From the NCBI GenBank assembly GCA_016699445.1, contig CP064976.1, positions 2,222,619 to 2,286,618 on the forward strand: a DNA stretch of 64,000 nucleotides, written 5' to 3'. The notes beneath the pieces were generated by a model, which made no database searches, was not told the DNA's origin, and worked only from the letters and a program-made list of their open reading frames with translations. The position numbers and the translations under genes were made by a program. The DNA comes from Deltaproteobacteria bacterium. GTDB lineage: Bacteria; UBA10199; JACPAL01; GCA-016699445. The stretch's first letter is position 1; every line of letters begins with the position of its first letter. This document shows positions 4,265 through 24,258 of the stretch, in pieces.

Positions 4265-4397
4265 TCCCCCACCACCCCTTCGGGGAGCCTCCCCCATAAA
4301 TGAGGGAGGCCAAAAAACAAAAAATCGCAAAATAAATGACCCTCCCTTTTTAGGGGAGGGAAGTTCCTATCATGAAATTATTGAGGGTGGGGTAGAG
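4265..4397. repeat. Structured repeat, family A copy 3 (with ~25-nt internal insertion); 3' arm overlaps the UbiA-like gene C-terminus
   Basis: Same 5' half as copies 1-2; the GGGTGGGGTAG arm read on the minus strand encodes the terminal ..LPHPQ* of ORF 4378..5238. Confidence 0.75.
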
Positions 4398-5238: not shown

Positions 5239-5782
5239 ACCGAGGCCTCAAGTCATTCCCAACCCCCAAATGATCCAAGACGCGAGCAATCACGGTATCT
5301 ACCGCTTCTTCAATCGTTTTGGGTTTTGAATAAAACGACGGAATCGCGGGAATGATCTCAGCTCCGGCCAAAGCCAAAAGGCGCATATTCTCAATATGAA
5401 CCAGGTTGAAAGGCGTCTCGCGAGGGACGAGAATCAACGTCTTCTTCTCTTTCAGAAACACATCGGCAGCCCGTGTCAGCAAGCTATCGGAATAGCCATG
5501 AGCGATCCGCCCCAAAGTGCCCATGCTGCACGGGATGATGACCATAGCGTCATAATGAGCTGTCACGGCGGAACCACTCGCAAAGGGTGCAGAAAAATCT
5601 TTTTGCCCAAAAAATGGAACGTCGAGAGATGTATAATCCGTGCTCATCTCATCAAGGCCGATTTGCAAAGCATTAGGACTCGCCGTGAGTTCGAGAGAAT
5701 GCCCAGCCTCTTTGAGGCAGTGAATAGTGCGCGTGGCATAAATAGCTCCGCTAGAGCCGCTGATTCCGAGGACAATTTTCAT
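5228..5782 (-). CDS. ubiX: Flavin prenyltransferase UbiX
   Basis: 184 aa, MKIVLGISGSSGAIYA N-terminus and full-length UbiX/Pad1 flavoprotein character; overlaps start of downstream UbiA-like gene. Confidence 0.85.
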   Translation of the reverse strand: MKIVLGISGSSGAIYATRTIHCLKEAGHSLELTASPNALQIGLDEMSTDYTSLDVPFFGQKDFSAPFASGSAVTAHYDAMVIIPCSMGTLGRIAHGYSDSLLTRAADVFLKEKKTLILVPRETPFNLVHIENMRLLALAGAEIIPAIPSFYSKPKTIEEAVDTVIARVLDHLGVGNDLRPRYGN

Positions 5783-5792
5783 AGGATGATTT

Positions 5793-7007
5793 TCATGCTT
5801 TCTCCTCAGGTGGTAAATGCCAAGGCTGTATGTTCATTCCAAGAAAGGGATAAGGATTTTCAAGAGGGACCATGAGGTAAAACTGGTTTGCTTTCTTCCC
5901 TAATTCTTTTTTGGCTTTCTCGAGTTGTTTCAACGTATCTTGAGTGATGGTGCGTGTACTTTTGATTTCATAAACGTCCCAGAGTGTTTGATTTTGGACC
6001 ATCAGATCAATTTCCAACGACGGCGTCTTGAGATAATAGTGTGGAGGCATTTCCCCTTGGCTCGTCCAATGTTTGATCAGATTAGTCACGACCAAGGTTT
6101 CAAAAAGAGGCCCAAACTGTGGAGAGCCTGCGATGAGTGAGGGATCCCGAAACCCCATTAAATAACAGGCAAGACCGACATCCATAAAATACATCTTGGG
6201 TGACTTCCGGATCCGTGACGAAATATTTTCATAAAAGGGTTCCACAAGATGGACTTGATAGGTTTGCACGAGAAGATTCAGCCAGCGCTGAGCGGTAGAA
6301 GGAGAGATGTTGGCGTCTCTGGCAAGATCACTGACGTTAAGGATTTGCCCAGTGCGGATAGCACACAATCTCACAAAACGTTCAAAGGAAAGAAGGTCAG
6401 CTACTTGTGCCAAAGAACGGATATCTCTCTCGAGATATGTATTCAAATAACTTCGATGCCAATCCGTAGGAAGGATATTTTGATCCCTCCATAATTCCGG
6501 AAAAAAACCTCGAAATAAAATTTGGGATAACGTGTCTTCCTGATGCCATTCTAAATCAATGGATGCGGAAATTTCTTTAACCGTAAGGGGATAAAGTGTG
6601 ATCAACCCAACACGTCCAGCCAAAGACTGAGTTACTTGTTCCATCATTAAAAAATTCTGGGAACCCGTCAGGATATACTGACCCTTTTCATCACGTTTTG
6701 CGTCGATACGACTTTGGAGATAGCTGGTCAGGTCAGGAACATTTTGGAATTCGTCAAAAATTACCGGAGGAGGGTAGCGATCCAAAAAGCTTTTGGGATC
6801 TTGCAGTACTTGCGCTCTCAGATCCAGGTCTTCAAGAAGGACATAATGATGAGTCTTGCAGTGCTCTTTGATAAAAGAGGTCTTTCCGACTTGTCGAGCC
6901 CCTGTCAGGATAATAGCGGGAAAAGACTTGAGAAAACGATCAAAAACACCCTCAAATTGCCTCGTAAACATTTGAAAAATAATAATATATGCAAATTGAT
7001 TATTCAA
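5793..7007 (-). CDS. AAA+ ATPase with DUF4143-type C-terminal domain
   Basis: Walker A GARQVGKTS near N-terminus; ~400 aa architecture typical of the ATPase/DUF4143 family; true start may be an internal Met. Confidence 0.7.
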   Translation of the reverse strand: MNNQFAYIIIFQMFTRQFEGVFDRFLKSFPAIILTGARQVGKTSFIKEHCKTHHYVLLEDLDLRAQVLQDPKSFLDRYPPPVIFDEFQNVPDLTSYLQSRIDAKRDEKGQYILTGSQNFLMMEQVTQSLAGRVGLITLYPLTVKEISASIDLEWHQEDTLSQILFRGFFPELWRDQNILPTDWHRSYLNTYLERDIRSLAQVADLLSFERFVRLCAIRTGQILNVSDLARDANISPSTAQRWLNLLVQTYQVHLVEPFYENISSRIRKSPKMYFMDVGLACYLMGFRDPSLIAGSPQFGPLFETLVVTNLIKHWTSQGEMPPHYYLKTPSLEIDLMVQNQTLWDVYEIKSTRTITQDTLKQLEKAKKELGKKANQFYLMVPLENPYPFLGMNIQPWHLPPEEKA

Positions 7008-7024
7008 TAATTAATTTGCATGAA

Positions 7025-7714
7025 TTATTTATCCGCCACGATTAAATGCGAAATACCACCCGTTTGTGCGGTAATTTTGATGTTCTTAAAGCCTGTTTGT
7101 TCTAATAATTTTCGGTACTCTTCCGTCGTGTAAAATTTCCGCACGGAATCGCGCAAATGTTCATAAGCCGACTTATTCTTAGACACTAAGGATCCTAATA
7201 CTGGAATGACAACTTCCGCGTAGGTGATGTTGAAAAGCTTCGGGAGAAGCTCCGTGGGCTTGAAGAATTCTAAGACCACGAGACGTCCGCCGGGTTTTAG
7301 CCATTCGTAAATATTCTGGAGTGCGAGGGGATTGTCTCCCACATTGCGCATTCCATAAGCCACCATCGCACCATCATAAGAAGAGCGGGGGATATCCAAG
7401 GCCAGTATATCCCCAATCTGAATTTGAATCTGCTTGCGTTCTTCTGGCGTCAAAAGGGCTTCACCTTTTTTGAGCATGTTTTCAGAAAAATCCACAGCGG
7501 TGATCTGAGTCATGGGATTGGTTTCCAAAAGTGTTTTGGAGAGAGCCAAAGTCCCGGCACAGAGATCCAGGATTTTCTGAAATTTTTTCGAATCAGAAAA
7601 TTCTTTCATCCCTTGCCGCCGCCACCGACGGTCGACTTGAAAAGAAAGCAGCGAATTCAACAAATCATATTGAGGCGCGATGGAGTCAAAAAGTTTCTGG
7701 ATGTGTTCGGACAT
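7025..7714 (-). CDS. ubiE: Demethylmenaquinone/ubiquinone C-methyltransferase UbiE/MenG
   Basis: 229 aa class I SAM methyltransferase with UbiE-type motifs (LDLCAGTL, VAYGMRNV). Confidence 0.85.
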   Translation of the reverse strand: MSEHIQKLFDSIAPQYDLLNSLLSFQVDRRWRRQGMKEFSDSKKFQKILDLCAGTLALSKTLLETNPMTQITAVDFSENMLKKGEALLTPEERKQIQIQIGDILALDIPRSSYDGAMVAYGMRNVGDNPLALQNIYEWLKPGGRLVVLEFFKPTELLPKLFNITYAEVVIPVLGSLVSKNKSAYEHLRDSVRKFYTTEEYRKLLEQTGFKNIKITAQTGGISHLIVADK

Positions 7715-7746: not shown

Positions 7747-9810
7747 CTATCTTCCATTAGGTCTTGGAAATGGTCCGGCATCTGCCGCAAAACCTATACG
7801 TGTCGTTTCAGCTCTGAGTAATGCTACTCTCATTTGTCTGGCACGAAAAGCGTCTGGATGCTTGGCTTCTGCTAAATCATCAGGTTTGAAATGTTTTACG
7901 AGTGCGGCAAAAGCTGGACGGACTCCCAATGGTGAATAGCCAAACATATTATGAGGAGATCGAAATCCTGTAAGATCACGAGGTATATCGGGTGAAGGCA
8001 CAGCACCCACATGGAAATTATTAGCCATCATGATGCGTTCAGCATCAGGAATCTTATCATCTCTGACATGCATGCCAGCGATATTACGCCGTGGAATGTA
8101 TTCATTGGGCACGAAAAGCGCTCCCTTCCGACGAAGAGGCGCATAAGGTGAAGGGAAAGGAAATGAAGAGATTCGTGTGCCTGAATCAAATAAGGCATTA
8201 CTTCTTCCTCGTTTGATATTAGTTTTCATTATTTCATAAATCGCTGAAGGATCTTTGCGACTTAAAAATCCTCCTGTTGTATTCAATAAATGCCCTCTCA
8301 TCACAGGAACAAAATTAAATATTTTTTCGGCGATGATAGAGTCTGGTTCAAGACCGAAAAGATATAAAGAACCAATGATGCCACAATAATCAAAAGCTCC
8401 TGTGTGATCCCAGGCTGAAATATTCCCTTGGGAAGGTTGTCGTTGTTGATCATGTCCTGAAAAAAGAAGATCAGCTCCTAGGATATTTTCGATTCCTTCG
8501 GGAACTCGATGCCTAAACATAAAATCTTTATCTGATTCACTTCCAATGATTCGGATTCCTGAGTAAGCATTGACAAGCATGGGTAGCGCCCATCGATTCG
8601 CTATCTGATGGTCATACTCTTGCTGAGTCAGTTTGCCATTTCTCAAATCGCTAATAAGATGTCGAGGGTGAGATGTGAGCTCATATAATAACTCCAGTGA
8701 CTGCATTCCCGTAGGCCCTTGATCGATGCGGTACGCTTGAGTTCTGGAAAGAAAAGTTGTGATGGGAATTTGAATATCCCATTTTTTAAGTATTTTTTGA
8801 GCGGCTTCATGTAAGTTCCAAAGTGCATTAAAACTTTTTTCTTCTCGTTTTTTTCGTTCATTTTCACGAGCGTTTTTATCTCCACCAATCATGGTTTGAT
8901 TATAGGCTATGTAGTTTTCAGTGAGAGATTTGTAAGCATTTCGAGCTACTGTAAACTCATCACATTCTTGAGACGTAGCTCTGTCTTTAAATTTGAGAAA
9001 AACATTGTCGTAAACAGTCAGCTGCCATTCGAGCTCAATATTTTCTATTTTGAGATGAAGCGGAAGTGCTTCTTGCCAAAGCTTATACTCTCTTTCAAAT
9101 GAGTTTTCTTGAGTACTAGATGGTGAAGCAAAAAATAATTCACGATAATCTTCATTAGCTTCCAACGCTTGAGCGTATAAGCCCGAGAGTTTGTCTTGTA
9201 TCTCTTGTGGTAAAACTGCCATGACGCGATCGTAAGCTGCTTCACTCCATTCAAGATCCGCTGCATGAAAACGTTCATAAGACGCCCGTCTTTCAGCTGT
9301 TTCAATGTGTGAAGGAATCGCTTCATAAACAACTTTTTCTTCAACAAGTTTTCTAACGGCTGCAGGATCGGTGACCAGATGGGCAGGAGGGGGTGGGGAT
9401 TTAGGAAATTCGCGAATCAAGCGAGCTCCTAAATACCCTAAAACTGTAGAACTTTTTCTTCCCAAGGTATCAATCGCTTCAACTCCTGGAGCTTCACTCA
9501 CAGAAACATTCAAAGCTTCTGCAATATTTTTATTAAAAATAGGAGCCAAAGAAGGGTGATAACTATGAGGTTGAAGCGTCGTAAAAAAGTCTCGTGCTTC
9601 AGGGATGGTTTGAGGAGGCGTTGATGACAATCCCACTAGATTTTGATCCAAAGATTTTAGCTCTTGATGTAAGTACTGAGCGATAGCCATTATTGGCGCT
9701 TCGCTCAGTCTATCTGTTTTCTGTTGGGCTAAAAAATCACGAAAATTAAGTGTGGATAAAAAATGGCTCGTGGCAAAAGTCAGGGCTTGGTTTGTTGAAG
9801 GGGAAATCAT
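7747..9810 (-). CDS. Hypothetical protein, 687 aa, no recognised domain; polar uncharged N-terminus
   Basis: Long ORF, 28-nt spacing to upstream gene, N-terminus MISPSTNQALTFATS. Confidence 0.6.
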   Translation of the reverse strand: MISPSTNQALTFATSHFLSTLNFRDFLAQQKTDRLSEAPIMAIAQYLHQELKSLDQNLVGLSSTPPQTIPEARDFFTTLQPHSYHPSLAPIFNKNIAEALNVSVSEAPGVEAIDTLGRKSSTVLGYLGARLIREFPKSPPPPAHLVTDPAAVRKLVEEKVVYEAIPSHIETAERRASYERFHAADLEWSEAAYDRVMAVLPQEIQDKLSGLYAQALEANEDYRELFFASPSSTQENSFEREYKLWQEALPLHLKIENIELEWQLTVYDNVFLKFKDRATSQECDEFTVARNAYKSLTENYIAYNQTMIGGDKNARENERKKREEKSFNALWNLHEAAQKILKKWDIQIPITTFLSRTQAYRIDQGPTGMQSLELLYELTSHPRHLISDLRNGKLTQQEYDHQIANRWALPMLVNAYSGIRIIGSESDKDFMFRHRVPEGIENILGADLLFSGHDQQRQPSQGNISAWDHTGAFDYCGIIGSLYLFGLEPDSIIAEKIFNFVPVMRGHLLNTTGGFLSRKDPSAIYEIMKTNIKRGRSNALFDSGTRISSFPFPSPYAPLRRKGALFVPNEYIPRRNIAGMHVRDDKIPDAERIMMANNFHVGAVPSPDIPRDLTGFRSPHNMFGYSPLGVRPAFAALVKHFKPDDLAEAKHPDAFRARQMRVALLRAETTRIGFAADAGPFPRPNGR

Positions 9811-9838
9811 AAAATCCTCATTTTTATAGTTTTAGTTT

Positions 9839-11647
9839 TTATGCGGCTACTTGAAGAGGTATCGACTTATCGTATTCATACTTTTTCACAAGTTTAGAGA
9901 CTTCAAATAGAAGTTGTTGGATAGCCGCTTCATCTTTTTGTGAAGAGGTCAGATGTCTTTTCATTATTGATAGCAATCGTCGTTTCATTTCTTCTCGATC
10001 ATCTTTTGCTTTTTGAGGAGGGATAGCTCGGATGCGAGCAATGATAGTGAAATAACGTTCTTCTTCTGAAGTAAGTTTGGTTATTTCATCTTCACTTATT
10101 TCTGTATTGAGAGCCGATGACCATTGAGTGGCGAGATTTGCAAGATACTGATCTGCAGGGCTGTAAGCACGTATAAGTGCATGGACTTTATCTATGATTT
10201 CTTGATCGGGAGTGTCTGCTGTTACATAAAAACCACCCGTCTGACGAAAATCAATAGTTCCTCCCGTAATGATAGGCTGAATGAATGGAAAAGTGTCTGT
10301 GAATTTTGGATCAATCGTAGTGCCTCCTAAAATATCAATGACAGAAATAAATACAGCTTTATTCATTTTTGCAGAAGTAGCTTTTGCAAGTTTAATTAAG
10401 CCAAAAATATTATCATAACGTTCAGGATGTTCTAATTTTACCACATTGTCATACATCGTGGGTATATCTAGAGTACCATTGTCTCGATAAACACGTGGAG
10501 CTCGTCCTCCTTGAACAAAAACGGCTGGCTCAATACCGAGTTTTTCAACGTTGTTTACAGTTTCATTAAAAGCTTCGGTTTGTGAGTCTTTGTTAGTGTT
10601 ATCACCATTCTGTTTAATCGCTGGTGGGAGAGCTAATACATCCATTAACCAAGAAAATAGAATCATTTTAGCTGCACGATTATTTCTAAAATTACTAATA
10701 TTTGCCATGAATCGTATTAAAGGACGAAGCGCAAATAAAGTGTAATTCGTCCACATCGTATGTCCATAAAGAGCATGAAAGATAGGTGTTCCTTTTGAAA
10801 CGTTTATTAAATTATCGAAACCCTGAGATGTCATACTCATCTTGTAGATTCGTGCTTGTCTTTGAGCCCAATAACCTAAAGCGTACCCAATGGCTTGTGT
10901 AAACTCAGGTGTGGCTTTTGCTTTACCTCCCATGAAAACTGTAGCGATATTGACAACAGTTTGAACAAATCCTTCCGCATGGACAGACGTGCGTCTAGCA
11001 AGTCCGAAAATTGTAGAAGCAGTATTAAGAAGTCCTGCATAGAAAGCTTTTTCAGAAGGAATTCTTTCTACACCCTCTCCATAGCGAGGCATGTTATTTT
11101 CTAACAAGTCTTGATGTTCAAACTCTTTAGGAACATCAGCCCCCAAAACTCCCAGGGCATTATGCTCAAACCTTTCCCAAGCATCCATTGTCAGCATCGC
11201 TCCTGCCGCCATTTGATTTTTGATGATAGCGTTTTCAACTCTATTGCTGTGATCTAAGGCTGCTAATGTAGAACCTAAAACGGCAGCAGCTGCCATTTGA
11301 GCTGGGTGAGAACCATAAGCATAAGCTATAAAAGGCATTAGCAAAGCTCTCCAGGGACTTAATTTCGAGTCCATTCTTCCAAATCGTTCGTTCCAATAAG
11401 CGAGTGCAGAACTTCTTTCTGGATTCATTTGCTTTCTTAAATCATCGGGCAGGATGGGACGAAATCCTCTGGCTAAGAGTCTGAGAACGGGTACCGTATA
11501 AGTAAGAGTCATAAGAGCATCAAGTGCGTAATTCGTTCCTGTCAAAACAGGTGCTGCTTGAGCTAAAGCTTCAAGGGGTTGAGTGTAGGCCGCTATTCCA
11601 ACAGCACCAGGAAGTACGCGAGCTGTAATAGAGTTTGGAGATGTCAT
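9839..11647 (-). CDS. Hypothetical protein, 602 aa, no recognised domain; polar uncharged N-terminus
   Basis: Long ORF, N-terminus MTSPNSITARVLPGAVGIA; AT-rich 200-bp upstream spacer. Confidence 0.6.
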   Translation of the reverse strand: MTSPNSITARVLPGAVGIAAYTQPLEALAQAAPVLTGTNYALDALMTLTYTVPVLRLLARGFRPILPDDLRKQMNPERSSALAYWNERFGRMDSKLSPWRALLMPFIAYAYGSHPAQMAAAAVLGSTLAALDHSNRVENAIIKNQMAAGAMLTMDAWERFEHNALGVLGADVPKEFEHQDLLENNMPRYGEGVERIPSEKAFYAGLLNTASTIFGLARRTSVHAEGFVQTVVNIATVFMGGKAKATPEFTQAIGYALGYWAQRQARIYKMSMTSQGFDNLINVSKGTPIFHALYGHTMWTNYTLFALRPLIRFMANISNFRNNRAAKMILFSWLMDVLALPPAIKQNGDNTNKDSQTEAFNETVNNVEKLGIEPAVFVQGGRAPRVYRDNGTLDIPTMYDNVVKLEHPERYDNIFGLIKLAKATSAKMNKAVFISVIDILGGTTIDPKFTDTFPFIQPIITGGTIDFRQTGGFYVTADTPDQEIIDKVHALIRAYSPADQYLANLATQWSSALNTEISEDEITKLTSEEERYFTIIARIRAIPPQKAKDDREEMKRRLLSIMKRHLTSSQKDEAAIQQLLFEVSKLVKKYEYDKSIPLQVAA

Positions 11648-11850
11648 GATAAAATTCCCTTTCTATTAAGATTCTTCGTAATTCTTTTAAAGAAGTTGTG
11701 TTTTGTGTGAGAAAAAAATGAGATAATAAAAATTTTGTAAATATTATAGAGGGTTAGGATGAAAATTTTGTTTAAAAAATAAAAGTAAGCCTACGAAAAG
11801 AAAAAAAGATGGTGAGTTGAAGCTGGGACTGTTTGTTCTGAAAAAAACGA

Positions 11851-13548
11851 TTAGTAAAACCGAGTATTATTATTAGCCGCCTGAATTTTTCCTAATGTCA
11901 TCGCTTGCATGCGGATGGCAGCAATTTCTAAATTGCGGGCTGTTTCTGCCGCTGTGTCGCCTTGATAGTCACTTACTTTCAAAATCCCGCAAGGTGCTAT
12001 CATGACCGTTTGGTTTTGTTTAACCCCTTGACGTAAGACTTGTTTGATATTGGTTGGTAAAATTTGGCCTGTACCGCAGATAGCATAGACGACAACATAA
12101 GTATCATTTGAATATTTTTCATTTGTATGTGCTGCAAAATTAAAAGCTCCGGACCGAAAACGTAGAGCTCCAGTTTCTTCATTTCTATCGGGAGTCTCTT
12201 TTCGTTTGCCTTCAGGCATAACCCATACAGTAGCACTTTGATCTCCAGAATTATCCACCCATTGAGACGCTGTTTTTTCTAATTCTAAATAAGCAGCATT
12301 TCCACCTTCTCTATCCAGATAAAAATGAGGAAATGTTCTTATCGTGCTGTCGGCACTCCAAAGATCTCGATTTGCAGGGTGTAAAAAAGGGTTTTTGCCT
12401 AAAACAAGAGATGTCTCCAGTTCTTTTTTAGAAGCAAAAGCCCCAGGCTGAACTCCAAATAATAAAATGGGATCCAGATGAGCTAAGTGATTACTAATGG
12501 CGATAATTTTAGATCCTTTAGCGATCAATTGTTGAATTACTTCCATCAGGTTTAAATTGAGAAAAATAGGGCGCCAATTTTGATGTTGAAGTAAACTTAA
12601 AGACCCAACGCCTAAAAGTTTTTTATAATCGTGACGAGAGGGCGTATTTAGTGTGCTCGATGCCGCTAAAGCGGCAATATGCATAAAATCAGCAATAAGC
12701 GTTGTTAGAGCCCAATGACTATAATAATGTTTGCCTCCAGCCCCACAACTATCTCTAAAAGCCTCAAAAAAAGCATCCGCATCTGTCATCGTATCTCTAT
12801 GAGCAGAGTCTCGAGGAGGTAACTCTCCAAAATAATCGTCAAAGTCTCTTGTACTAATAGGTCCTTGGCTGACATGTTTTAAAAACCGTTTTACATGAGG
12901 GTGGTCTTGAAAAGCTTCGATGCCTCCACGAGCTAATATTTCTTCAGCTACTTTGGGATCTTTAGAGAGTAGTAAATGTGCAAGTTCAAAAGGTGTGTTT
13001 AAAGTGGGGTTTGCTTTTGCTAATTTTAAACTTTGAACGACACTTCTCCACAATCCATGATTAAATGTATGGGGGCTGGTTTGTGTGGGTAATTCCGATA
13101 ACCATTTTTCAGCTTCTGCTTGAATCCCACTAATATCAATAAGACTATCTCGAGAGTATTCAAAAAGCGCTCTTCTAACTTCTTCTTTCTGGCTTAAAGC
13201 TTTGCAAACACCCGCATGATCGGCAATTTCTCTAAGAGCCGACGCGGATTGATGAATATCAGAAGACGTAATAAGCTGACGATGTCGAAGTTTATTATTT
13301 AAGCGTTGTTTTTCAGGAAGATCGGGATGTTTTCTTAGGGTCCGTGTATCGATCGCAGAAACATATTCATTGGTTATTCCTAAAATAGACGACATTGTAT
13401 TGGTATAAGGATGTTTTGTCCCAGGAGTTAGGCGAAACAAATGATCGATCAAATGACTAAGTGCACGTTGGACATCAAGTCCGCTTTGGACACCATCCGC
13501 TAAAGCGGGAGAAAGAAAAACTCGGGTTGGTGCTACTGTTGATATCAT
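11851..13548 (-). CDS. Two-domain protein: unknown N-terminal domain + C-terminal lysophospholipid acyltransferase (PlsC/GPAT-like) domain
   Basis: HX4D motif in IAISNHLAHLDPILL, motif III-like VWVMPEGKRK, motif IV-like TYVVVYAICGTGQILP; paralogous to 15525..17198. Confidence 0.7.
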   Translation of the reverse strand: MISTVAPTRVFLSPALADGVQSGLDVQRALSHLIDHLFRLTPGTKHPYTNTMSSILGITNEYVSAIDTRTLRKHPDLPEKQRLNNKLRHRQLITSSDIHQSASALREIADHAGVCKALSQKEEVRRALFEYSRDSLIDISGIQAEAEKWLSELPTQTSPHTFNHGLWRSVVQSLKLAKANPTLNTPFELAHLLLSKDPKVAEEILARGGIEAFQDHPHVKRFLKHVSQGPISTRDFDDYFGELPPRDSAHRDTMTDADAFFEAFRDSCGAGGKHYYSHWALTTLIADFMHIAALAASSTLNTPSRHDYKKLLGVGSLSLLQHQNWRPIFLNLNLMEVIQQLIAKGSKIIAISNHLAHLDPILLFGVQPGAFASKKELETSLVLGKNPFLHPANRDLWSADSTIRTFPHFYLDREGGNAAYLELEKTASQWVDNSGDQSATVWVMPEGKRKETPDRNEETGALRFRSGAFNFAAHTNEKYSNDTYVVVYAICGTGQILPTNIKQVLRQGVKQNQTVMIAPCGILKVSDYQGDTAAETARNLEIAAIRMQAMTLGKIQAANNNTRFY

Positions 13549-13688
13549 TTAGAAAGCTCTTTTCCAGAAAACTTTTTATTAGTATTACATTGATGTCTTA
13601 AAAGTACGTTTAATCATTATCGACATTATAAATAAAAAAGTTGCCTAATATTTTTTTAAAAACTTTTATCCTTTTTAGATATTTCTCC

Positions 13689-15464
13689 TCATTTATTTCC
13701 TAAATAATAAGCCAATACGGGGGCTAATGAGTGGTAAATCATTTGAAAAGCTACCAGTTGAGAGGCTCGTGTGAATGCCATAGTTGGTTGGCTTCGCAAA
13801 ACTCTTCCGGTAATACCTGATCCTCGTGCATAAGCAATTTCTTGTAGAGCCGCTAGAATGACATAAGGAAGAGCTGCTGCCAAAGCGAAGGTCGCGATAA
13901 GAGCAGTAGGATTATTGAGCGGTTGTAAGAAGATTTCAGTTGCCACAAGGGGTGCTGTGATTCCCAGCGCGGAACGTGAGTCTTGGTACGTTTCTTTTTG
14001 TGGAGATAGAGACATAAGAAGAGAGGTCAAAATTCCTGCGGCTGCAGCCCTTAAAGTTTCATGAGTATTATGAGTCGGTGCTCCTGGGATATGTTGCTGT
14101 AAAAAGGATCCAGCAAAGGCTCCAGATGTCAAACCAACAGCTTCAGAAATTAAGCTTGCAGCTTTTTGGGGTATCGTTGGTAGTATAAGCGGATTTTCTA
14201 TTTGCTCACGAGTGATGAGAAAATGCCCTGGATGTCTTGGGTCGGATCTTTTAATGGTTCGATAACCGGCCAGTTCATGTACAATGCTTCCGTTATGTTC
14301 TTGGACCCACTTAAGAAGTTGAGGCTTGGAAGCATTGACAGCAAAGGTAATTCCATTTTTTCTTTCGGGATTAGCATGGTCTAAGGCAAATTGAAGCATG
14401 TCCATATCTGACGGGGAGTCGGTATACGCAGCAACTGTTTCCAGTTTTAATCCACGTTCTTTAAATAAATCTGAAAGTCTTGTGAGTGCCCGAGCTTTTT
14501 CAACATCATGAAGGTAAACCATTTCTCCTGATAGTTTTTGAGTTTGAGGATCTACGGTAAAACTAGTCCCCATGACATTTTCAGGCGGCAAGCCTAAATC
14601 GCGAGCATGATCTTCAATAAGAGGTTTAGGGGAGGCGGAAACAAGAAGGACAAGATGGCCCGCTTCATAATGCCGCACAATTTCATCACAGAGAAATTCA
14701 CTAATACCTTCTCGTCCATGAAGCCGATGCCAATGAGAGAGACTGGCTCCAATTTTGAGAGGGTCCATATCTTTGATCGTTTCAGCAATGAACTTTTGTA
14801 CTTCTTCACGATTGATATGTCCTTCTCTTACTTCTTTTATCCGGGCTTTAAGTGAGGGGATAAGGATCTTTAAAATCTCTTTCTCCGCACCGGTTTGTTC
14901 TTCTAATGTAGTTTTTTTAAATAAGACTTTGAAGGCAATACGCCCAATCCAATCCATCCATCCTTGTCCTGCTCGAGTCGTTCCATCAACGTCAATCAAA
15001 ACAACTTTTGGTGAGTTATCTTTGTATTTTTCAGGGTGAGTCAGGACATCTCCCAATGAAATAGGGGTCCGATAAGAGGAAGCATTGATGTCGACAATTC
15101 CTCGGATTTTGGCCCTTGCAACAGCGGTTTTCAATAAAATGCCTAGGGTGGTATCATAGGGAATTTTAGTGATAGTTTCTCCAAGTAAAATTTGGAGAGT
15201 GTGTTCTGGTCTCGTTAGTGGTGTTAAAAATTGAGAAGTTGTGTCTGTATTTGGTAAAAAAGTTTTCAGGGCATTAGGGATATATTCTGCAGGAACCCCT
15301 TGAGCCCCAAGTGCTTTAACGGCTGCGGTAATATCATTTTGAGCAAAAGCATCATTAATAATCGGTGTTAAGTTCTCTCTAATATTCGGAGGAAGATGAG
15401 GCATGTAAGCTCTAAAATCAAATATAGAACCTGCTGTGAGAGTGGGTCCTGTAATAGTATTCAT
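13689..15464 (-). CDS. HAD-IB superfamily phosphatase domain protein with hydrophobic C-terminal region
   Basis: Motif I VVLIDVDGTTRAG (DxDGT), motif II LVLLVSASP, motif IV AAYTDSPSDMDM; C-terminal 150 aa hydrophobic. Confidence 0.7.
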   Translation of the reverse strand: MNTITGPTLTAGSIFDFRAYMPHLPPNIRENLTPIINDAFAQNDITAAVKALGAQGVPAEYIPNALKTFLPNTDTTSQFLTPLTRPEHTLQILLGETITKIPYDTTLGILLKTAVARAKIRGIVDINASSYRTPISLGDVLTHPEKYKDNSPKVVLIDVDGTTRAGQGWMDWIGRIAFKVLFKKTTLEEQTGAEKEILKILIPSLKARIKEVREGHINREEVQKFIAETIKDMDPLKIGASLSHWHRLHGREGISEFLCDEIVRHYEAGHLVLLVSASPKPLIEDHARDLGLPPENVMGTSFTVDPQTQKLSGEMVYLHDVEKARALTRLSDLFKERGLKLETVAAYTDSPSDMDMLQFALDHANPERKNGITFAVNASKPQLLKWVQEHNGSIVHELAGYRTIKRSDPRHPGHFLITREQIENPLILPTIPQKAASLISEAVGLTSGAFAGSFLQQHIPGAPTHNTHETLRAAAAGILTSLLMSLSPQKETYQDSRSALGITAPLVATEIFLQPLNNPTALIATFALAAALPYVILAALQEIAYARGSGITGRVLRSQPTMAFTRASQLVAFQMIYHSLAPVLAYYLGNK

Positions 15465-15524
15465 AATTATCCTTTCATGAGTTTCTGTAGTCGCAGGTGA
15501 TTTGTAAAAGTTTCGAATATTTTT

Positions 15525-17198
15525 TTATTTTTTGTTTAGTAGTGAAAAAAGCTGATGATTTCCAGCTGCTTGAACAGCTCCGAGGCTAGCAGCATGTGCT
15601 CTCATTATAGCTCTATGGAGATTATCTGCAGCCTCACGAGGGTTAGCCCCCTCATCAATATGTTCTTGAAGAGGGATGAGCCCATCAAAGCTCACAACAA
15701 CAGGTTGTTTCCTCTGAACGCCTTCTTTCAATAATTGATTTATTTTTGAGGGTAGAGCTTCGGATGTGCCATAGAGAGACACAACAACTACATATGTATT
15801 TCCCTTTTCTCTTTGAACGCGTGCAGCAAAATTAGCAGCTCCATGATGAAAGAAAGATTCACCTACTTCTTGGCCACGTATATCAGAGGTTCGTGACCCT
15901 CCCGGAAACCAGCAAATGGTTTTTCCTTTTTCGATTTGTTTTAAAGCAGCTTGCTCTACTTCTTGATAAGCTTCAGATTTTTTGCTTCGATCTACGGGAA
16001 TATGATTTCCTATGCCTAGAAGAGAATCTTCATGCCATCGAGAAGGGTCTAAGGGGTGATTGAAAGGATTATTTCCAAGTATTGGAGCCTTCCAAAGCTC
16101 TCTTTTAGCTATAAAAACCCCTTTGAAAAGGGCATAGAGTATCAATGCATCGAAGTGACTTCGATGGTTAGAAATGGCAATAATATTGGCCCCATCTTTT
16201 TTTAGCTTTTCTATTTCTAGTAAAACTTCGTGGTTTAAAATAAAAGGCTGCCATTGTAGGTGTTGCATAAGGCTAACAGTCCCCATGCTTAAGAGCCTTT
16301 TATATGAAGTGCCGGATGGATCAATCAAATGACTTCGTGTGGTGAGAGCTCCTACTTGTAAAAAATTAAATACAACTTCGGCTATGCCAAGCCGACTCAA
16401 CGTTGGTACGCCTTCAGGTCCACGACTTCTTTTTATTGCCTCGATAATTTGCTCGGCCTCACTTTTTTCTGGAAAGAAGGGGTTGGCTTCTGGGGGTTCT
16501 AAGGCAAGATAATGAGCGATATCAAAAGGCCCAATAGGACTTTGTTTAGTTTTATGTAAAAGCTTTTCAGCATTGGAAAGACGTAAAATGATCTCTGATA
16601 TTGAGAGTCCTAAAGCACCTGCATAAAGGCTAAGTGTCGAAAGATTTAATTGATTATTAAAAAGCTGATATAAAAGTATGGAAGGCAATCCAATGGCATG
16701 AAGTGCTGATCCCATCTCTCCCCAATAAGCAGCTTGTTTCCATAGGCTGTTAGAAATAGGGGTTGGGATATAAGTCTGACAAAGGCTTTTCCAATACTCC
16801 ACTTCGCGACAGACTTGTGTTACGTTGGTTTTTGTATCTTCTAGGCTATCTTCAAGTGATTTAAGAAGTTCTTTTGAATTGTGTAAGAATACAACTAAGC
16901 TTGGGTAGTTTCCGATTTCTCTTAAGGCATGGGCAACATCTTCAGGTCGAGTCGATCTAAGCATGGCTCTGTGATGAAGATTTTTTTCTGAAGAAGGGTA
17001 TTTCTTCACATATTCTTCCACAGCTTTTGCAATCATAGTTGTAAGCGTTGGAAAAGGATTGTTTTTATTGAGTTCACTGGCTTCAAAAATATGATTGCTA
17101 AGCTGAAATAAGGCCGCTCTTGTATCATCTGTGCATTTGATGCCTTCTTTAAGTGAAGGTGTAAGGGGTAGTCGCGTTTGAGTAGGTGCAACAATCAT
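15525..17198 (-). CDS. Two-domain protein: unknown N-terminal domain + C-terminal lysophospholipid acyltransferase domain (paralog of 11851..13548)
   Basis: HX4D in IAISNHRSHFDALIL, motif III ICWFPGGSRTS, motif IV TYVVVVSLYGTSEALP; N-terminus MIVAPTQTRLPLTPSL parallels MISTVAPTRVFLSPAL. Confidence 0.7.
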   Translation of the reverse strand: MIVAPTQTRLPLTPSLKEGIKCTDDTRAALFQLSNHIFEASELNKNNPFPTLTTMIAKAVEEYVKKYPSSEKNLHHRAMLRSTRPEDVAHALREIGNYPSLVVFLHNSKELLKSLEDSLEDTKTNVTQVCREVEYWKSLCQTYIPTPISNSLWKQAAYWGEMGSALHAIGLPSILLYQLFNNQLNLSTLSLYAGALGLSISEIILRLSNAEKLLHKTKQSPIGPFDIAHYLALEPPEANPFFPEKSEAEQIIEAIKRSRGPEGVPTLSRLGIAEVVFNFLQVGALTTRSHLIDPSGTSYKRLLSMGTVSLMQHLQWQPFILNHEVLLEIEKLKKDGANIIAISNHRSHFDALILYALFKGVFIAKRELWKAPILGNNPFNHPLDPSRWHEDSLLGIGNHIPVDRSKKSEAYQEVEQAALKQIEKGKTICWFPGGSRTSDIRGQEVGESFFHHGAANFAARVQREKGNTYVVVVSLYGTSEALPSKINQLLKEGVQRKQPVVVSFDGLIPLQEHIDEGANPREAADNLHRAIMRAHAASLGAVQAAGNHQLFSLLNKK

Positions 17199-17326
17199 AA
17201 GTTTTTATTATTTCCTAATTATTTACAGTCTTTTATTAAGCATCGTATTGTCTTTTCAAAAGTTGCTAAGTAATTTTGAAAAAAATAAATAAAATCATGG
17301 ATTAGATTATTATCTTCTCATGACGT

Positions 17327-18517
17327 CTAGCATGATTTGCCCGCTGCCCACCCGGACGACCAGGCCCATTGGAAGTTGTAGCCGCCGAGTTCTCCTGTGA
17401 CGTCCAAGACTTCTCCAACAAAAAAAAGTCCTGATATGGATTTTGATTCTAGGGTTTTGGATGAGAAATGGTCAGTGTCGACCCCACCTCGGGTCACTTC
17501 AGCGCGTGCGTAGCCCACTGTTTTTTCGGGAGTCCATGTCCAATGATGAATTTTTTCCACGAGCTCTAGAATTGTTTGATTCGAAATTTCGACAAGCGGT
17601 TTGGAAGGAAATTCAAACACAGTGGCTAAATGCTCTGCCAAGCGGGATGGCCAAAAAATTCCCATGAGAGTTTTAAACGTTTTTTTTTCGCCCTGATTTT
17701 TTTTCTCCAAAAACCATTCTGACAGTTTTTGATTTTGACACCAATCAATCTCAATAGATTCTTTTTGCTTCCAATAGAGTGACGCTTGAAGAGCTGCTGG
17801 ACCGCTTAAACCTTGATGAGTGATGAGTAGGTCGTCTTCAAAATTTTTTGTTTTGGTTCGAATACACACAGGGGTTGAAAGACCTGAAAGCGTTTTCCAT
17901 AAATCCTGAAATTCAGGATTTCCACGAAAACCATCGAGGGCAGGGGATGTGGGGATGATGTTCATGTGAAACTGTTTAGCAATTTCATAGCCAAATCCCG
18001 TGGCTCCAATTTGTGGTAGCGACAGTCCACCCGTCGCGATGACGAGAGTCTCTGAAGAAAAATTTCCCTGTGAGGTTTCTGTTAAAAAATTTTCCGGATC
18101 TTTTTGAATCGAGAGGACTTTTGTCTCCAGAAGTATTTTGACCCCAGCCTGTTCGCATTCATGAAGGAGCATGTTTAAAATATCTTTAGCGGAGTTTTGA
18201 CAAAAAAGTTGTCCGGGTTTTTTCTCCACGTAAGCAATCTTGTGTTTTTGAATCAATTCCAAAAAATGATGAGGGGTATAACGAGAGAGGGCGGATTTGC
18301 AAAAATGAGGATTTTGAGAAACAAAATTTTCAGGAGTCGTGTTGAGATTGGTGAAATTGCACCGACCACCACCTGAAACCAAAATCTTCGCTCCCGCTTT
18401 GGTATTGTGATCGATGACGACAACTTTTCGTCCTCTTTTGGCCGCTTCAATCGCGCAAAAAAGTCCCGCAGCTCCAGCACCGATAATGAGTGTGTCGTAA
18501 TTTTTCTTAATATTCAC
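17327..18517 (-). CDS. FAD-dependent oxidoreductase, HI0933/BaiN-like family
   Basis: N-terminal dinucleotide fold YDTLIIGAGAAGLFCAIEAAKRGRKVVVIDHN and GGGRCNFTN motif. Confidence 0.8.
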   Translation of the reverse strand: MNIKKNYDTLIIGAGAAGLFCAIEAAKRGRKVVVIDHNTKAGAKILVSGGGRCNFTNLNTTPENFVSQNPHFCKSALSRYTPHHFLELIQKHKIAYVEKKPGQLFCQNSAKDILNMLLHECEQAGVKILLETKVLSIQKDPENFLTETSQGNFSSETLVIATGGLSLPQIGATGFGYEIAKQFHMNIIPTSPALDGFRGNPEFQDLWKTLSGLSTPVCIRTKTKNFEDDLLITHQGLSGPAALQASLYWKQKESIEIDWCQNQKLSEWFLEKKNQGEKKTFKTLMGIFWPSRLAEHLATVFEFPSKPLVEISNQTILELVEKIHHWTWTPEKTVGYARAEVTRGGVDTDHFSSKTLESKSISGLFFVGEVLDVTGELGGYNFQWAWSSGWAAGKSC

Positions 18518-19352
18518 CGTGCGGGTTTACAGCATGATCATGTAAATCATTCAAGAATGGAAGAAGGCCGGTTTCCACAGAGAGGTTGGGCATGATTGGT
18601 TGGCCACTAGAATTTTGACAAGTGATGGTGATGACTCCCGAAGTAAGACCACCATCCTGACTTAAAAAAGAAGCTTCAAATACTGCTTTGCCTAGAGGAC
18701 CTCTTTGATTCTGTTCAAATCCTGAAAAAATTAGTGCAGAAAGTGTGATGGTTGCTGGGGTTAAATCTCCAGCTGGGATGAGACCGGATCGTTGAGCTAA
18801 TTGATAGACGAGTGTTGGTATTTGCGCACTATGAGTCTCATTTCCAAAAAAAGCTTGTGCGATAGCCATCAAGTCGGGGTTAAATTTGATTCTAATACTG
18901 AGTTGTCCAGGAGAATCTGGACCAGGGCTGCTGGCGATTTCCGTTGTCACTCTGTATGAAATGGAAGCGCCTACACCTAAAATCAGTGTATCCGTGAATG
19001 AAAAAAGCGTTCCAGCATTTGCTTGATTTGGATCTAAACTCTTCCTGATCAATGAGATCTGTTTGTCACTGTCTTGATGGAGATAATTTATTTTTGAGAT
19101 TCCACCAGCGGTAGATGTGTTCTCTGACCAACCTGCGGGCACTGGAGGTCTTGGTTCTTCGTGAGAGCGGGCGAGTTGATGGTAAATAAATGGAAGGAGC
19201 ACATGTAAAGGATATTCTGTTTCCATTTTTTTATACATACTTGCAACGATGCCATCTGTATGTGCCGATAACGGAGGAAGGTTTAATCCTGTTGTAGGTT
19301 CGTAAGAAGCAGTGTTTAAAAAGCTTGTGACATATGGGGTTATTGTTGCCAT
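18507..19352 (-). CDS. Hypothetical protein, 281 aa; polar uncharged N-terminus
   Basis: ORF with N-terminus MATITPYVTSFLNTASYEPTTG; overlaps the start of the downstream oxidoreductase by 11 nt. Confidence 0.5.
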   Translation of the reverse strand: MATITPYVTSFLNTASYEPTTGLNLPPLSAHTDGIVASMYKKMETEYPLHVLLPFIYHQLARSHEEPRPPVPAGWSENTSTAGGISKINYLHQDSDKQISLIRKSLDPNQANAGTLFSFTDTLILGVGASISYRVTTEIASSPGPDSPGQLSIRIKFNPDLMAIAQAFFGNETHSAQIPTLVYQLAQRSGLIPAGDLTPATITLSALIFSGFEQNQRGPLGKAVFEASFLSQDGGLTSGVITITCQNSSGQPIMPNLSVETGLLPFLNDLHDHAVNPHGEY

Positions 19353-19470
19353 TATTTTCTCCTTAAACCTTATCGCACTGACATTGAAAAAGTTTCGTCT
19401 TTATTTATTTCATCTTTATATATTTCTTCTTGCCGAACTCTTGATTCAAGGGAATGAGTAGCCACTCATT

Positions 19471-20484
19471 ATGAAGAGAATTGATTCTAAACAGGCTCTA
19501 AATATTTGGGAAAGTGATTGGACGTCACTTCGATCTCAATCTCATGAAGCGCGTTGTGAACATTATCCTGATGGGCAGGCGAGCTATGTTGTCATGCGGA
19601 TTGTGAGCTATACCAATGTTTGTGTGGCGGATTGTTCTTATTGCGCCTTCTACCGTCGACCCAATGACGATGGGGCTTATGTCCTTTCGAAGGAAGATAT
19701 TTTTTCTAAAATTGACGGACTTCTAGCTGTTGGTGGGTCGGTGGTGGCTATGGAAGGGGGATTTAATCCCAAGCTTAAGATTGAACATTACGAAGATCTT
19801 TTTGCGTCCGTGCGTAAGCGCTATGGAGATAAGATTGAGATTTATGGGTCTACGATTGTCGAAGTGATTTTCATTGCGAAGAGTTCGCGTATTTCACTGG
19901 AAGAAGCTCTCATCCGTCTCAAAGAAGCTGGATTGCGTTGGATTCCGGGTGGTGGTGCTGAAATTTTAACCGATGCCTGGCGCGCAAAGCTTTCTCCTAA
20001 AAAATATTCGGTGAAAGATTATATTGAAGGCATGCGAGTGGCACAAAAACTTGGACTCGGTACCACAGCGACGATGGTGATTGGTTTTGGTGAAACAGTT
20101 GCCGACCGTATTGAGCATCTCGAACATATCCGTCGTCTTCAAGATGAGACAGGTGGTTTTGCGAGTTTTCTTTTGTGGACCTACCAACCCCTCAACACTC
20201 CCATGGGAGGCTCTCTCACCAGCAATGACGACTATCTTCGCTCAGTCGCCTTAAGCCGTTTGTATTTGGATAACATCCCTGTGATTCGTGCGTCTTTTCT
20301 CACTCAATACGACAAAGGCCCCGAAGCTCTCACTGCCGGTGCTCATGATTTTGATATCCCTCTAGAAGACCAAGTCACCCAACTGGCCGGCGCCAAGATT
20401 GAAGAAAATGTCGATCGTGTGTTGGAGTGGGTAAAGAAGTCTGGGATAACCCCTCAGAAAAGGCTCCCATTTTCTTTGAAATGA
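19471..20484 (+). CDS. Radical SAM menaquinone biosynthesis enzyme, MqnC/MqnE family (futalosine pathway)
   Basis: 337 aa; CxxxCxxC cluster motif in SYTNVCVADCSYCAF. Confidence 0.8.
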   Translation: MKRIDSKQALNIWESDWTSLRSQSHEARCEHYPDGQASYVVMRIVSYTNVCVADCSYCAFYRRPNDDGAYVLSKEDIFSKIDGLLAVGGSVVAMEGGFNPKLKIEHYEDLFASVRKRYGDKIEIYGSTIVEVIFIAKSSRISLEEALIRLKEAGLRWIPGGGAEILTDAWRAKLSPKKYSVKDYIEGMRVAQKLGLGTTATMVIGFGETVADRIEHLEHIRRLQDETGGFASFLLWTYQPLNTPMGGSLTSNDDYLRSVALSRLYLDNIPVIRASFLTQYDKGPEALTAGAHDFDIPLEDQVTQLAGAKIEENVDRVLEWVKKSGITPQKRLPFSLK

Positions 20485-20618: not shown

Positions 20619-21438
20619 ATGTTTCCCTATATAAATATGAATCTTCATTGTTTAAAAATTAAAAGCCAAACCGCCCCTCATAAAACCTTCTTTTTCCTCC
20701 ACGGTATTATGGGACGTGGGAGAAATTGGCAGCGCTTTGCGACAGAGCTAGTTCAGCGAAAACCAGATATCGAAGCGGTATTGGTCGATTTGCGTTTGCA
20801 TGGCGAGTCTCAAGGTTTTGATCCACCGCATACAGTACGAGCTTGTGGTGAAGATGTGGTAGGGGCAATTCATGAATTGCCCTTACAAAATGAAAAAAGT
20901 GATCGTTGGACATTCGTTCGGAGGGAAGGTGGCTCTGGAAGTTGCGCGACTCGCTCCTGATTTACTTTCAGCAATTTGGCTCATTGATTCATTTCCAGGT
21001 TTGTCTGCAAGGCATGGTGATGCTTGGAAAATGATTGAATGGCTTCAAAAAAATGAAGGTCCTTTTACAACACGGACAGAAGTGCTTAAAAAATTAAAAG
21101 AAGCGCAATTTCCCGAAGCCATCGCTGCGTGGATGGCGACCAATCTAGAACCCGAAGGAAAACTTTTAAAATGGATTTTCCCCGTGAAGGGCATCGCGAG
21201 TCTATTAGATGATTACGCCAAAACAGATTTGACCGACACACTCCTCAATCCACCATGTCCTATACATGTCGTGAAGGGGACAAAGTCGCCTTTGATTACG
21301 GATGATTTAATCCAGAAAATCCAACATTCAAAAACCAGATTTCCAATTTCCCTTCACTTCGTCGAAGCCGGACATTGGGTGCATTCTGAAAATCCGAAAG
21401 AATTGCTAAGAATAATGATGTCATCTTTTAAAGGATAA
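20619..21438 (+). pseudogene. Alpha/beta hydrolase, reading frame interrupted by a 28-bp palindromic insertion
   Basis: N-part FFFLHGIMGRGRNW..DLRLHGESQ (frame 0) and C-part KKVIVGHSFGGKVA.. (frame 1, GxSxG nucleophile); deleting 20859-20886 joins ..GEDV to KMKKVIVGHSFGG in frame. Confidence 0.65.
20859..20886. mobile_element. 28-bp palindromic insertion element, copy 1 (one mismatch)
   Basis: GTAGGGGCAATTCATGAATTGCCCTTAC; same element at 25885-25912; exact excision restores the hydrolase frame. Confidence 0.75.
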
Positions 21439-24198: not shown

Positions 24199-24258
24199 AA
24201 GAATTTCTTCTATAAAATGTTCATAAACGCACTTGAAAGTGTTTTGCTGGAAAATTTT

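Follow-up and report, generated by a model that had tools for sequence, protein, structure and literature searches.

Introduction

Among the HAD-IB phosphatases (subfamily TIGR01490/PF12710) is PgpC/YfhB, a membrane lipid phosphatase, and HAD-IB domains fused to PlsC domains occur in actinobacteria, for instance in Rv2483c of Mycobacterium tuberculosis. Rv2483c has been counted among conserved PlsC homologs (PMC10593935). The present analysis concerns a block of seven genes at positions 7747-19352 of a 64,000-nucleotide stretch of DNA (the window) from contig CP064976, which encodes a predicted HAD-IB phosphatase, two acyltransferases of the PlsC type and probably a third, and which lies beside late genes of menaquinone biosynthesis. 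What appears to be new in it is a pair of protein families that combine the PlsC fold with a novel N-terminal domain and are tied to a conserved promoter, the kinds of enzyme themselves being known.

Two classes of alternative sigma factor are relevant to that promoter. The sigma-28 consensus places the -10 element GCCGATAA about 11 nucleotides after an extended -35 octamer, TAAAGTTT, and about 15 nucleotides after its TAAA core, while the envelope-stress promoters of extracytoplasmic function (ECF) sigma factors carry an AAC-containing -35 and a CGT-type -10 element. In Bdellovibrio bacteriovorus two thirds of the attack-phase promoters are of the FliA type, TTAAG-N16-CCGATA, and many of these belong to uncharacterised genes (PMC3627812).

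The contig is a single sequence of 2,746,553 bp labelled 'Deltaproteobacteria bacterium'. It is the circular metagenome-assembled genome (MAG) EsbW_18-Q3-R4-48_MAXAC.279_cln of Singleton et al. 2021 (PMC8012365), classified there as GTDB p__UBA10199; o__2-02-FULL-50-16 and by SILVA as Myxococcota 'bacteriap25'. UBA10199 was described in that study as an undescribed phylum, of which this was the one closed genome reported there (PMC8012365).

The acyltransferases

The seven consecutive minus-strand genes of the initial annotation, spanning some 11.6 kb, were all recovered as open reading frames (ORFs), and their products match GenBank entries QQR80097-QQR80103 exactly. The assembly is nanopore-based, and both dnaJ and a hydrolase gene, outside the block, are frameshifted in it; the seven ORFs, however, are also intact in L001, an independent Illumina-based (short-read) assembly of a sister strain with 96-97% nucleotide identity, and hence are not artefacts of an indel-prone assembly. 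The proteins are named here by their length in amino acids, and coordinates refer to the minus strand unless a plus sign is given.

Two of the genes had been regarded as acyltransferase paralogs, and this was confirmed. Both p557 (15525-17198) and p565 (11851-13548) match the Pfam family PF01553 (Acyltransferase), with 46.6 bits (E 3.7e-12) and 37.6 bits (E 2.4e-9), respectively, against a gathering cut-off of 23 bits, and they align with each other over their full length at 30% identity (E 1e-79). In p557 a helical N-terminal domain (about residues 1-265) precedes a complete PlsC-type acyltransferase domain, and p565 has the same two-domain architecture; the ortholog of p565 in the related genome L002 is 45% identical. 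The catalytic core of p557 covers residues 331-486 (15741-16208) and contains NH345RSHFD350, VDR404, FPGGSR436 and YVVVV, and that of p565 covers residues 340-486 (12091-12531) with NH354LAHLD359, LDR and MPEGKR. The H-x4-D dyad of block I is thus intact in both proteins, and its two residues are invariant in 25 family members, as are K365, R404, R436 and several glycines. In block III, where the family consensus is EGTR, p557 has GGSR and p565 EGKR. Features peculiar to the family emerged from the same 25-sequence alignment: its members start with 'LPLSPxL', carry 'L..QAxMN' as a C-terminal motif and have 20-25 extra residues ('LGxNPFHHPxxPxxW') inserted between blocks I and II.

An AlphaFold2 model of p557, computed from a 12-sequence alignment, was confident, with a mean predicted local distance difference test score (pLDDT) of 80.5 and a predicted template modelling score of 0.81, and the PlsC alpha/beta fold expected for the acyltransferase assignment of p557 and p565 was found. 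The modelled chain is folded from about residue 8, with a strand at residues 9-10, pLDDT 93 at residues 11-20 and about 85-95 over residues 11-140, so that the N-terminus would belong to the fold. Judged by their motifs and family matches, p557 and p565 are acyltransferases of the PlsC/GPAT superfamily in which all catalytic blocks are represented, block III in a degenerate form.

The family is rare. An exhaustive HMMER search with a two-sequence p557/p565 profile among 1.84 billion representatives returned 43 proteins at E <= 1e-3, of which 26 had E <= 1e-10; about 25 of the 43 are full-length relatives of 520-610 residues and the rest are ordinary PlsCs of 240-300 residues. Ten members were looked up, and nine proved to be metagenomic only, the remaining one standing for a cluster that contains a MAG protein recorded in GenBank as 'Deltaproteobacteria bacterium'. 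Word-indexed protein searches, with either p557 or the 25-sequence alignment as query, returned only the near-identical copy of the sister strain, and no further paralogs were found within the window.

A third, cryptic member of the superfamily is probably encoded by p687 (7747-9810), which begins 28 nt after p602 and ends 32 nt before UbiE. It consists of a helical N-terminal region and a candidate acyltransferase domain of extreme divergence, whose core at residues 455-550 (8161-8448) contains H469-TGAF-D474, R518 and G544-T-R546. Homologs of 917-1022 residues are encoded in L002 and in the related contigs L086 and L088, with a fragment in L083 (phmmer E 1e-21 to 4e-26), and homologs adjoin acyltransferase genes in L002, L083, L086, L088 and L090. 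In an alignment of five sequences H469, R518, G535 and G544-T-R546 are invariant, and the fifth residue after the histidine is either Asp or Glu (Glu in three of the five). Comparison of the p687 and p557 families by hhalign gave E 2.4e-4 and a probability of 43% over 138 columns, pairing H469 with H345, the AK that follows block I, R518 with R404 and GTR with G(S/T)R436, with the blocks in the right order and at the right spacing. PF01553 was the sole Pfam match on the excised segment (E 0.0034, 17.6 bits) and the top one on the full-length protein (14.7 bits), both below the gathering cut-off, and it was the family most frequently matched among p687 relatives, in two of the five members (best E 2.5e-4). 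Small home-made PlsC profiles and shallow hhalign runs gave no significant match to p687, and a single-sequence AlphaFold model was of low confidence (pLDDT 36.5). The block pairing, the invariant residues and the rank of PF01553 among the matches lead us to read p687 as a very divergent PlsC-fold acyltransferase that keeps its catalytic residues, an assignment that is well supported, not proven. The initial annotation had listed three proteins devoid of recognisable domains; since p687 is in all likelihood a divergent acyltransferase, that description now holds for two, p602 and p281.

The phosphatase and the flavoprotein

The product of p591 (13689-15464) had been proposed to be a HAD-IB phosphatase with a hydrophobic C-terminal region, and both features were found. 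It matches PF12710/TIGR01490 (E 9e-16), scoring 59.3 bits with PF12710 for a cut-off of 27 bits; at the level of the NCBIfam subfamilies its score is below the cut-offs (57.9 vs 98.3 bits). The HAD core, at residues 156-360 (14385-14999), is flanked by an uncharacterised N-terminal region of about 150 residues and by a hydrophobic or amphipathic C-terminal region of about 160 residues (about 430-591; 13689-14177), with a Kyte-Doolittle peak of 2.32 at residues 522-540, which is partly conserved in L002. The L002 ortholog is 26-30% identical across residues 133-556, and the residues of motifs I (D158-V-D160-G-T162), II (S276-A-S278) and IV (D349-S-x-S-D353) are invariant between the two. A sequence search of the PDB gave no relative of p591. 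These features identify p591 as an apparently intact HAD-IB phosphatase with what looks like a membrane-seeking tail.

The FAD oxidoreductase noted among these genes is p396 (17327-18517), whose first 11 nt overlap the end of p281. With its match to the HI0933-like family (TIGR00275, E 8e-122) and to HI0933 itself (PDB 2GQF, E 8e-113), it is by homology a typical flavoprotein of a widespread family. Its ortholog in L002 is 67% identical, against 22-45% for the neighbouring proteins of the block, and p396 thus seems to evolve like a housekeeping gene, although it is predicted to be co-transcribed with p281.

A predicted promoter shared by five genes

A repeat analysis of the intergenic spacers gave the first hint of a common motif, which was then read on the coding strand. 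Upstream of p281, p557, p591, p565 and p602 the sequence [G/A][A/C]AAC[T/C]T-N14/15-CGA[T/C/A] is found, typically as G[A/C]AACTTTT-N12-CGAT(AA). The predicted promoters are GAAACTTTTTCAATGTCAGTGCGAT for p281-p396 (19372-19396, ending 20 nt before the start codon), GCAACTTTTGAAAAGACAATACGAT for p557 (17242-17266, identical in the sister strain), GAAACTTTTACAAATCACCTGCGAC for p591 (15490-15514), GCAACTTTTTTATTTATAATGTCGAT for p565 (13619-13644, with a spacer 1 nt longer) and ACAACTTCTTTAAAAGAATTACGAA for p602-p687 and possibly UbiE onward (11675-11699). The motif was not found before p687, p396 or UbiE. Its placement defines the units [p281-p396], [p557], [p591], [p565] and [p602-p687, perhaps into UbiE]. 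The gaps between genes are generally 60-203 nt, and only p281-p396, with the 11-nt overlap, and p602-p687(-UbiE), with gaps of 28 and 32 nt, are tightly packed. A single operon was rejected in view of the five separate motif-type promoters and the wide gaps, and the block is better called a clustered regulon, as predicted from these elements.

The motif occurs more often than expected by chance. The window contains nine matches, where 1.8-1.9 are expected (maximum 5 in 100 block shuffles and 7 in 300 shuffles), and with a fixed spacer seven matches were found for 1.14 expected, a number reached in none of 100 shuffles. Of these nine, all but one lie between genes in the correct orientation, at 12-137 nt from the start codon that follows. 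In L002 the motif precedes the p281-like gene, both acyltransferase genes and the p687-like gene; among the other related contigs it precedes the acyltransferase gene in L086, L088, L090 and L091 and the p687-like gene in L086, L088 and L090, and in L086 and L088 also the genes of kinases and of small orphans. In all, it recurs ahead of homologous genes in four other genomes (GC 42-63%). Per locus 5-6 matches were counted, with five each in L002, L086 and L088, where about 0.3 would be expected. Altogether 28 matches were counted in the related loci, which amount to 122 kb, and only 2 in unrelated PlsC loci, which amount to 648 kb; the latter came from a scan of metagenome contigs with NHRSxLD, which supplied 79 ordinary PlsC loci as negative controls and one short contig of the family itself. 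A scan for sigma-70 promoters and terminators showed no enrichment, and no sigma factor gene was found in the window or in the related loci.

Compared with sigma-28 promoters, the -10 element fits (mostly CGAT, in several cases CCGATAA) and the spacing agrees within ±1 nt, while the -35 element is G[A/C]AAC(TTTT) and not TAAA. An AAC-TTTT element of this kind is similar to the -35 of ECF envelope-stress promoters. On sequence grounds a sigma-28/FliA-like and an ECF-type factor would fit the motif equally well.

Further copies of the motif lie elsewhere in the window. One (52281-52305) is located 12 nt before the start of an orphan gene (50338-52269) whose product of 643 residues has no Pfam, PHROG or PADLOC match and an uncharged, Ser/Thr/Pro-rich N-terminus, MPPPFVITGSPTATVFPSAP; with an N-terminus of the type shared by the block proteins and a motif copy, this gene probably belongs to the same regulon. 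Another, divergent copy (52345-52370, +) precedes a gene for a T-component (TAtT) of a tripartite ATP-independent periplasmic (TRAP) transporter (52419-53408), which is followed by DctP/Q/M genes, and a third (62471-62495) precedes an ORF at 61855-62334 that is weakly related to two other small ORFs of the window. Two genes at 33935-35737 (600 aa) and 35840-36919 (359 aa) matched no family, and a weak match to the motif core stands 11 nt before the second. No homologs of the 643- and 600-residue orphans and of others of this kind were found in the related loci.

Conserved position beside the late menaquinone operon

The block occupies a slot whose borders are recognisable in other genomes. In L002 (GC 52%) the slot holds, in order, a p281-like gene, the flavoprotein, an acyltransferase (593 aa), a p687-like gene (1022 aa), the HAD gene (587 aa), an acyltransferase (539 aa) and UbiE. 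In L083, L086/87, L088/89, L090 and L091 the order is p687-like, acyltransferase, amidohydrolase, UbiD, UbiE, UbiX and UbiA; L091 begins just before the acyltransferase gene, and its sequence therefore shows no upstream neighbour. Genes of this pair lie directly upstream of the quinone operon, on the same strand, in seven independent contigs (GC 42-63%), with gaps of 32-75 nt. The two members are adjacent or nearly so in all five genomes that show both, with the HAD gene between them in L002 and an overlap of 4 nt in L083. The conserved core is therefore the pair formed by the p687-like gene and an acyltransferase gene beside the quinone operon, while the HAD and p281 genes are common to the window and L002 only and p602 occurs only in the lineage of the window.

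Immediately upstream of the p687-like gene, Ser/Thr kinases of 1,054-1,261 residues are encoded in the GC-rich relatives, namely in L086 (3818-6982), L088 (3188-6973) and L087 (1830-5000), with the motif in L086 and L088; in L090 a partial ORF (3-3581) of at least 1,192 residues, for which there is no domain information, stands in the kinase position.

The initial annotation had treated the genes as a functional group, and this is borne out by the promoter common to five of them and by the homologous set in L002, which occupies the matching slot in that related genome. Nor did homology searches place the proteins of no assigned function in well-characterised housekeeping families.

Divergence and selection

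Between the window and L001, the ratio of non-synonymous to synonymous substitution rates (dN/dS) was 0-0.07 for the quinone genes, 0.16 for p687 and 0.19 for p602; p602 and p687 are under purifying selection. For p565, p591 and p557 the values were 0.48-0.72, on few substitutions. Summed over genes, the acyltransferase and HAD genes showed 19 synonymous and 35 non-synonymous changes against 40 and 5 in the quinone genes and are thus less constrained. At the greater distance of L002 the block proteins are 22-45% identical, and the products of the flanking genes 67-84%. Divergence is not uniform: the core pair is as conserved as UbiE when L086 and L088 are compared (65-72%; acyltransferase 65%), whereas between L088 and L083, at a similar housekeeping distance, it is only 26-33% identical (acyltransferase 33%), which seems to point to episodic divergence or hidden paralogy.

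An exception in the comparison with L001 is p602 (9839-11647). From about residue 190 on its product shares 75% of amino acids with that of L001 (6695-8500), with a synonymous divergence (dS) of 0.91, in a neighbourhood that is otherwise 96-99.7% identical; the sister strain carries a recombinant, deeply diverged allele. The protein gave no match above threshold in Pfam, NCBIfam, PHROGs, PADLOC or the PDB sequences, nor in Pfam with an excised segment; against both acyltransferase families hhalign gave non-significant E values of 0.04-0.37, and home-made PlsC profiles gave nothing. Strings reminiscent of PlsC were recognised by eye only (GFDNL...YGH296TMWTN301, QGGR382 and FISVIDILGG), and these are the blocks best conserved between the two alleles, with Asn at the position of the Asp. 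An acyltransferase assignment of p602 is not supported, there being no intact H-x4-D and no statistical test in its favour. The product of p281 (18507-19352), the first gene of the p281-p396 unit, had no match in Pfam, NCBIfam, PHROG, PADLOC or the PDB, and its ortholog at the equivalent position of L002 is 35% identical. No family is assigned to either protein.

Genomic surroundings

The co-directional run extends beyond the block, 32 nt downstream of which begin co-directional late menaquinone genes, namely UbiE/MenG (7025-7714), an AAA_14/DUF4143 ATPase (5793-7007), UbiX (5228-5782) and UbiA (4378-5238), all assigned by Pfam and together covering 4378-7714; MqnA was found farther along. The ATPase gene sits between UbiE and UbiX, which in L002, L083, L086 and L088 are adjacent. 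The upstream border is formed by a divergent radical-SAM gene of the MqnE/MqnC type (19471-20484, +; PF04055 and PF19288), whose orthologs at the equivalent relative position are 84% (L002) and 73% (L088) identical, the gene lying upstream in L088 too. The GC content of the block (8001-18000) is 39-41%, compared with 44-45% in the menaquinone genes just downstream and 42-43% upstream; this dip has no counterpart in L002 (52.6% in the block vs 52.5% and 49.8%). No tRNA or Rfam element was found at the borders and no PHROG or PADLOC match in the block, and phage, defence-system and mobile-element readings were rejected after these scans.

The frameshifts mentioned above concern dnaJ (29967-31110, +), interrupted within its J-domain, where an indel error left in the nanopore-based assembly is more probable than a pseudogene, and an alpha/beta-hydrolase gene beside the radical-SAM gene (20619-21438, +), which is one ORF of 265 residues in L002. 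The TRAP DctM gene (54931-56203, +), split in the gene calls into overlapping ORFs of 349 and 90 residues, looks like a similar case. Small gene pairs at 23816-24651, 32515-33088, 33230-33932 and 61855-62334, amid housekeeping genes, resemble toxin-antitoxin pairs, which is a guess from their size, pairing and N-termini.

Discussion

The reading placed first here, which we would hold to be right about as readily as wrong, is that UBA10199 has in this block a lineage-specific module for remodelling membrane glycerolipids, and that an alternative sigma factor controls it. Three PlsC-type acyltransferases and a phosphatase, together with a promoter common to five genes that include p557, p565 and p591, would probably make up a switchable set for membrane-lipid remodelling. 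The making or remodelling of a lipid had been suggested in the initial annotation; it stands as the most economical account of three PlsC/GPAT-type domains and a HAD-IB domain, and it is from these domains that we still infer it. In such a scheme a cognate sigma factor, sigma-28/FliA-like or ECF-like, active in envelope stress or at a stage of the life cycle, would cause the enzymes to be made. The products of p557, p565 and p687 would acylate lyso-lipids or glycerol-3-phosphate, and p591 would dephosphorylate a lipid phosphate of the phosphatidic acid, lysophosphatidic acid or phosphatidylglycerophosphate type, the acyltransferases and the phosphatase probably acting as peripheral membrane proteins. 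The acyl and head-group make-up would thereby be altered in the membrane that also houses the quinone pool, with p602, p281 and the HI0933-type flavoprotein as co-expressed accessories.

Several points weigh against this proposal. The lipid substrate is deduced solely from superfamily membership, and PlsC-fold enzymes acylate non-glycerolipid acceptors too. Block III is degenerate in both window copies (GGSR and EGKR), and the assignment of p687 leans on sub-threshold statistics, namely the hhalign probability of 43% and Pfam scores under the gathering cut-off. The lipid model would leave p602 and p281 without an explanation, their accessory role being only proposed. Since HAD, p281 and p602 are restricted in distribution, the phylum does not share the seven-gene set as a whole, and hidden paralogy, suggested by the uneven divergence of the acyltransferases, could blur the orthology calls. 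Finally, the motif was derived from the same sequences that it is used to interpret, and its independent support comes from conservation in the other genomes and from the negative-control loci.

An unlikely alternative is that the proteins are exported effectors or toxins acting on the membranes of prey or host, and that the promoter marks an attack or infection programme, as FliA does in Bdellovibrio. The proteins are large, lineage-restricted and without Sec signals or transmembrane anchors, and the six products other than the flavoprotein have uncharged N-termini rich in Ser, Thr, Pro and Asn, falling within the top 11 of the 58 window proteins (Mann-Whitney p 1.7e-4, a post hoc comparison). 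To this may be added their divergence from L002, much faster than that of the neighbouring genes, the turnover of gene content and the recombinant p602 allele between strains, the resemblance of the promoter to the FliA consensus of attack-phase genes (PMC3627812) and, in relatives, its presence before the giant Ser/Thr kinases. An N-terminus such as that of p557, however, predicted by the model to be ordered and starting with the 'LPLSPxL' conserved throughout the family, would be unlike a disordered secretion signal; no secretion-system gene was found in the 64-kb window or in the 122 kb of related loci; and the core genes are vertically inherited beside the quinone genes, diverging at the housekeeping rate between L086 and L088. 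For secreted effectors, which the initial annotation had entertained, the data give no evidence, the lack of any Sec signal being a further point against them.

A broader version of that idea we regard as improbable: the promoter would define a phylum-wide regulon of giant lineage-specific proteins (canonical and cryptic acyltransferases, lipid phosphatase, Ser/Thr kinases of 1,000-1,260 residues and orphans like that of 643 residues) forming a life-cycle or attack programme like that of Bdellovibrio FliA, whose acyltransferase and phosphatase members would be delivered, by a secretion route that reads uncharged, Ser/Thr/Pro-rich N-termini, to rewrite the lipids of prey or host membranes.

Quite improbable is a role of the core pair in the late menaquinone operon, either by esterifying or tethering a quinone or a naphthoate intermediate or by shaping the lipid surroundings for membrane-bound prenylation, decarboxylation and methylation, the other genes being later additions. 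The position of the pair in seven contigs, upstream of the operon on the same strand and at gaps of 32-75 nt, speaks for it, and so does the fact that no motif promoter lies between p687 and UbiE, which makes read-through plausible. Nevertheless, the quinone genes evolve far more slowly, the order within the slot is rearranged in the window and in L002, synteny within one phylum may be plain inheritance, and fold and catalytic blocks fit glycerolipid acyltransferases best. To our knowledge, no acyltransferase step belongs to the futalosine/menaquinone pathway.

That the genes have no common function, the slot being a tolerant one that gathers unrelated, weakly constrained genes and redundant PlsC paralogs, is very improbable, for although its content varies (HAD, p602 and p281 in some genomes, giant kinases in others), its GC content is below that just downstream and dN/dS is raised in p557, p591 and p565, one promoter type is conserved across genomes, acyltransferase and p687-like genes are neighbours, or nearly so, in all five genomes that show both, catalytic residues are invariant in 25 members, p602 and p687 are under purifying selection, and no tRNA, mobile-element or defence signature was seen.

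UBA10199 is uncultured and has no described physiology, and the block now provides a concrete, testable unit. Through the predicted promoter its two new families and its phosphatase are tied to one another and to further giant orphans of the phylum. It would represent the first regulon and the first candidate membrane-remodelling response for this phylum, and the promoter pattern can be searched genome-wide in order to list the whole regulon. The p687 family has diverged so far that its members appear as 'hypothetical' in standard annotation. The block also raises the question of why the core pair stays beside menaquinone biosynthesis; and should it be true that the proteins act on foreign membranes, they would be the first sign that UBA10199 lives as a predator or in association with a host.

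Comparison with known systems

The window family shares with PlsC/LPLAT enzymes (PF01553; for example PlsC of Thermotoga maritima, PDB 5KYM) blocks of the NHxSxxD, xDR, (F/Y)PEGTR and VVPV type. It differs from them in its length of 520-610 residues, in a helical N-terminal domain of 230-270 residues without detectable relative, in the insertion between blocks I and II, in the C-terminal motif and in comprising only 43 cluster representatives. An alternative sigma factor is predicted to govern its expression, unlike that of a housekeeping gene. With soluble plastid glycerol-3-phosphate acyltransferase (squash GPAT, PDB 1K30/1IUQ) and enzymes of the PlsB/GPAT1 type, sequence identity of the window proteins is 12-16%, and the N-terminal domains are not detectably related. 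As in the actinobacterial HAD-IB/PlsC fusions, a HAD-IB phosphatase is paired in the window with PlsC-type acyltransferases; in contrast to those fusions, p591 is a separate protein of 591 residues with an N-terminal region and a hydrophobic tail of its own.

In its -35 element, G[A/C]AACTTTT, the promoter is nearer to the ECF-type GGAACTTTT than to TAAA or TTAAG, and unlike in sigma-28 regulons no flagellar or chemotaxis gene carries the motif in the sequence at hand. With the FliA promoters of Bdellovibrio it shares the two-block organization, a -35 pentamer centred on 'AA' and, after about 15-16 nt, a (C)CGAT(AA) -10 element; as in the FliA regulon, it stands before many lineage-specific, uncharacterised genes.

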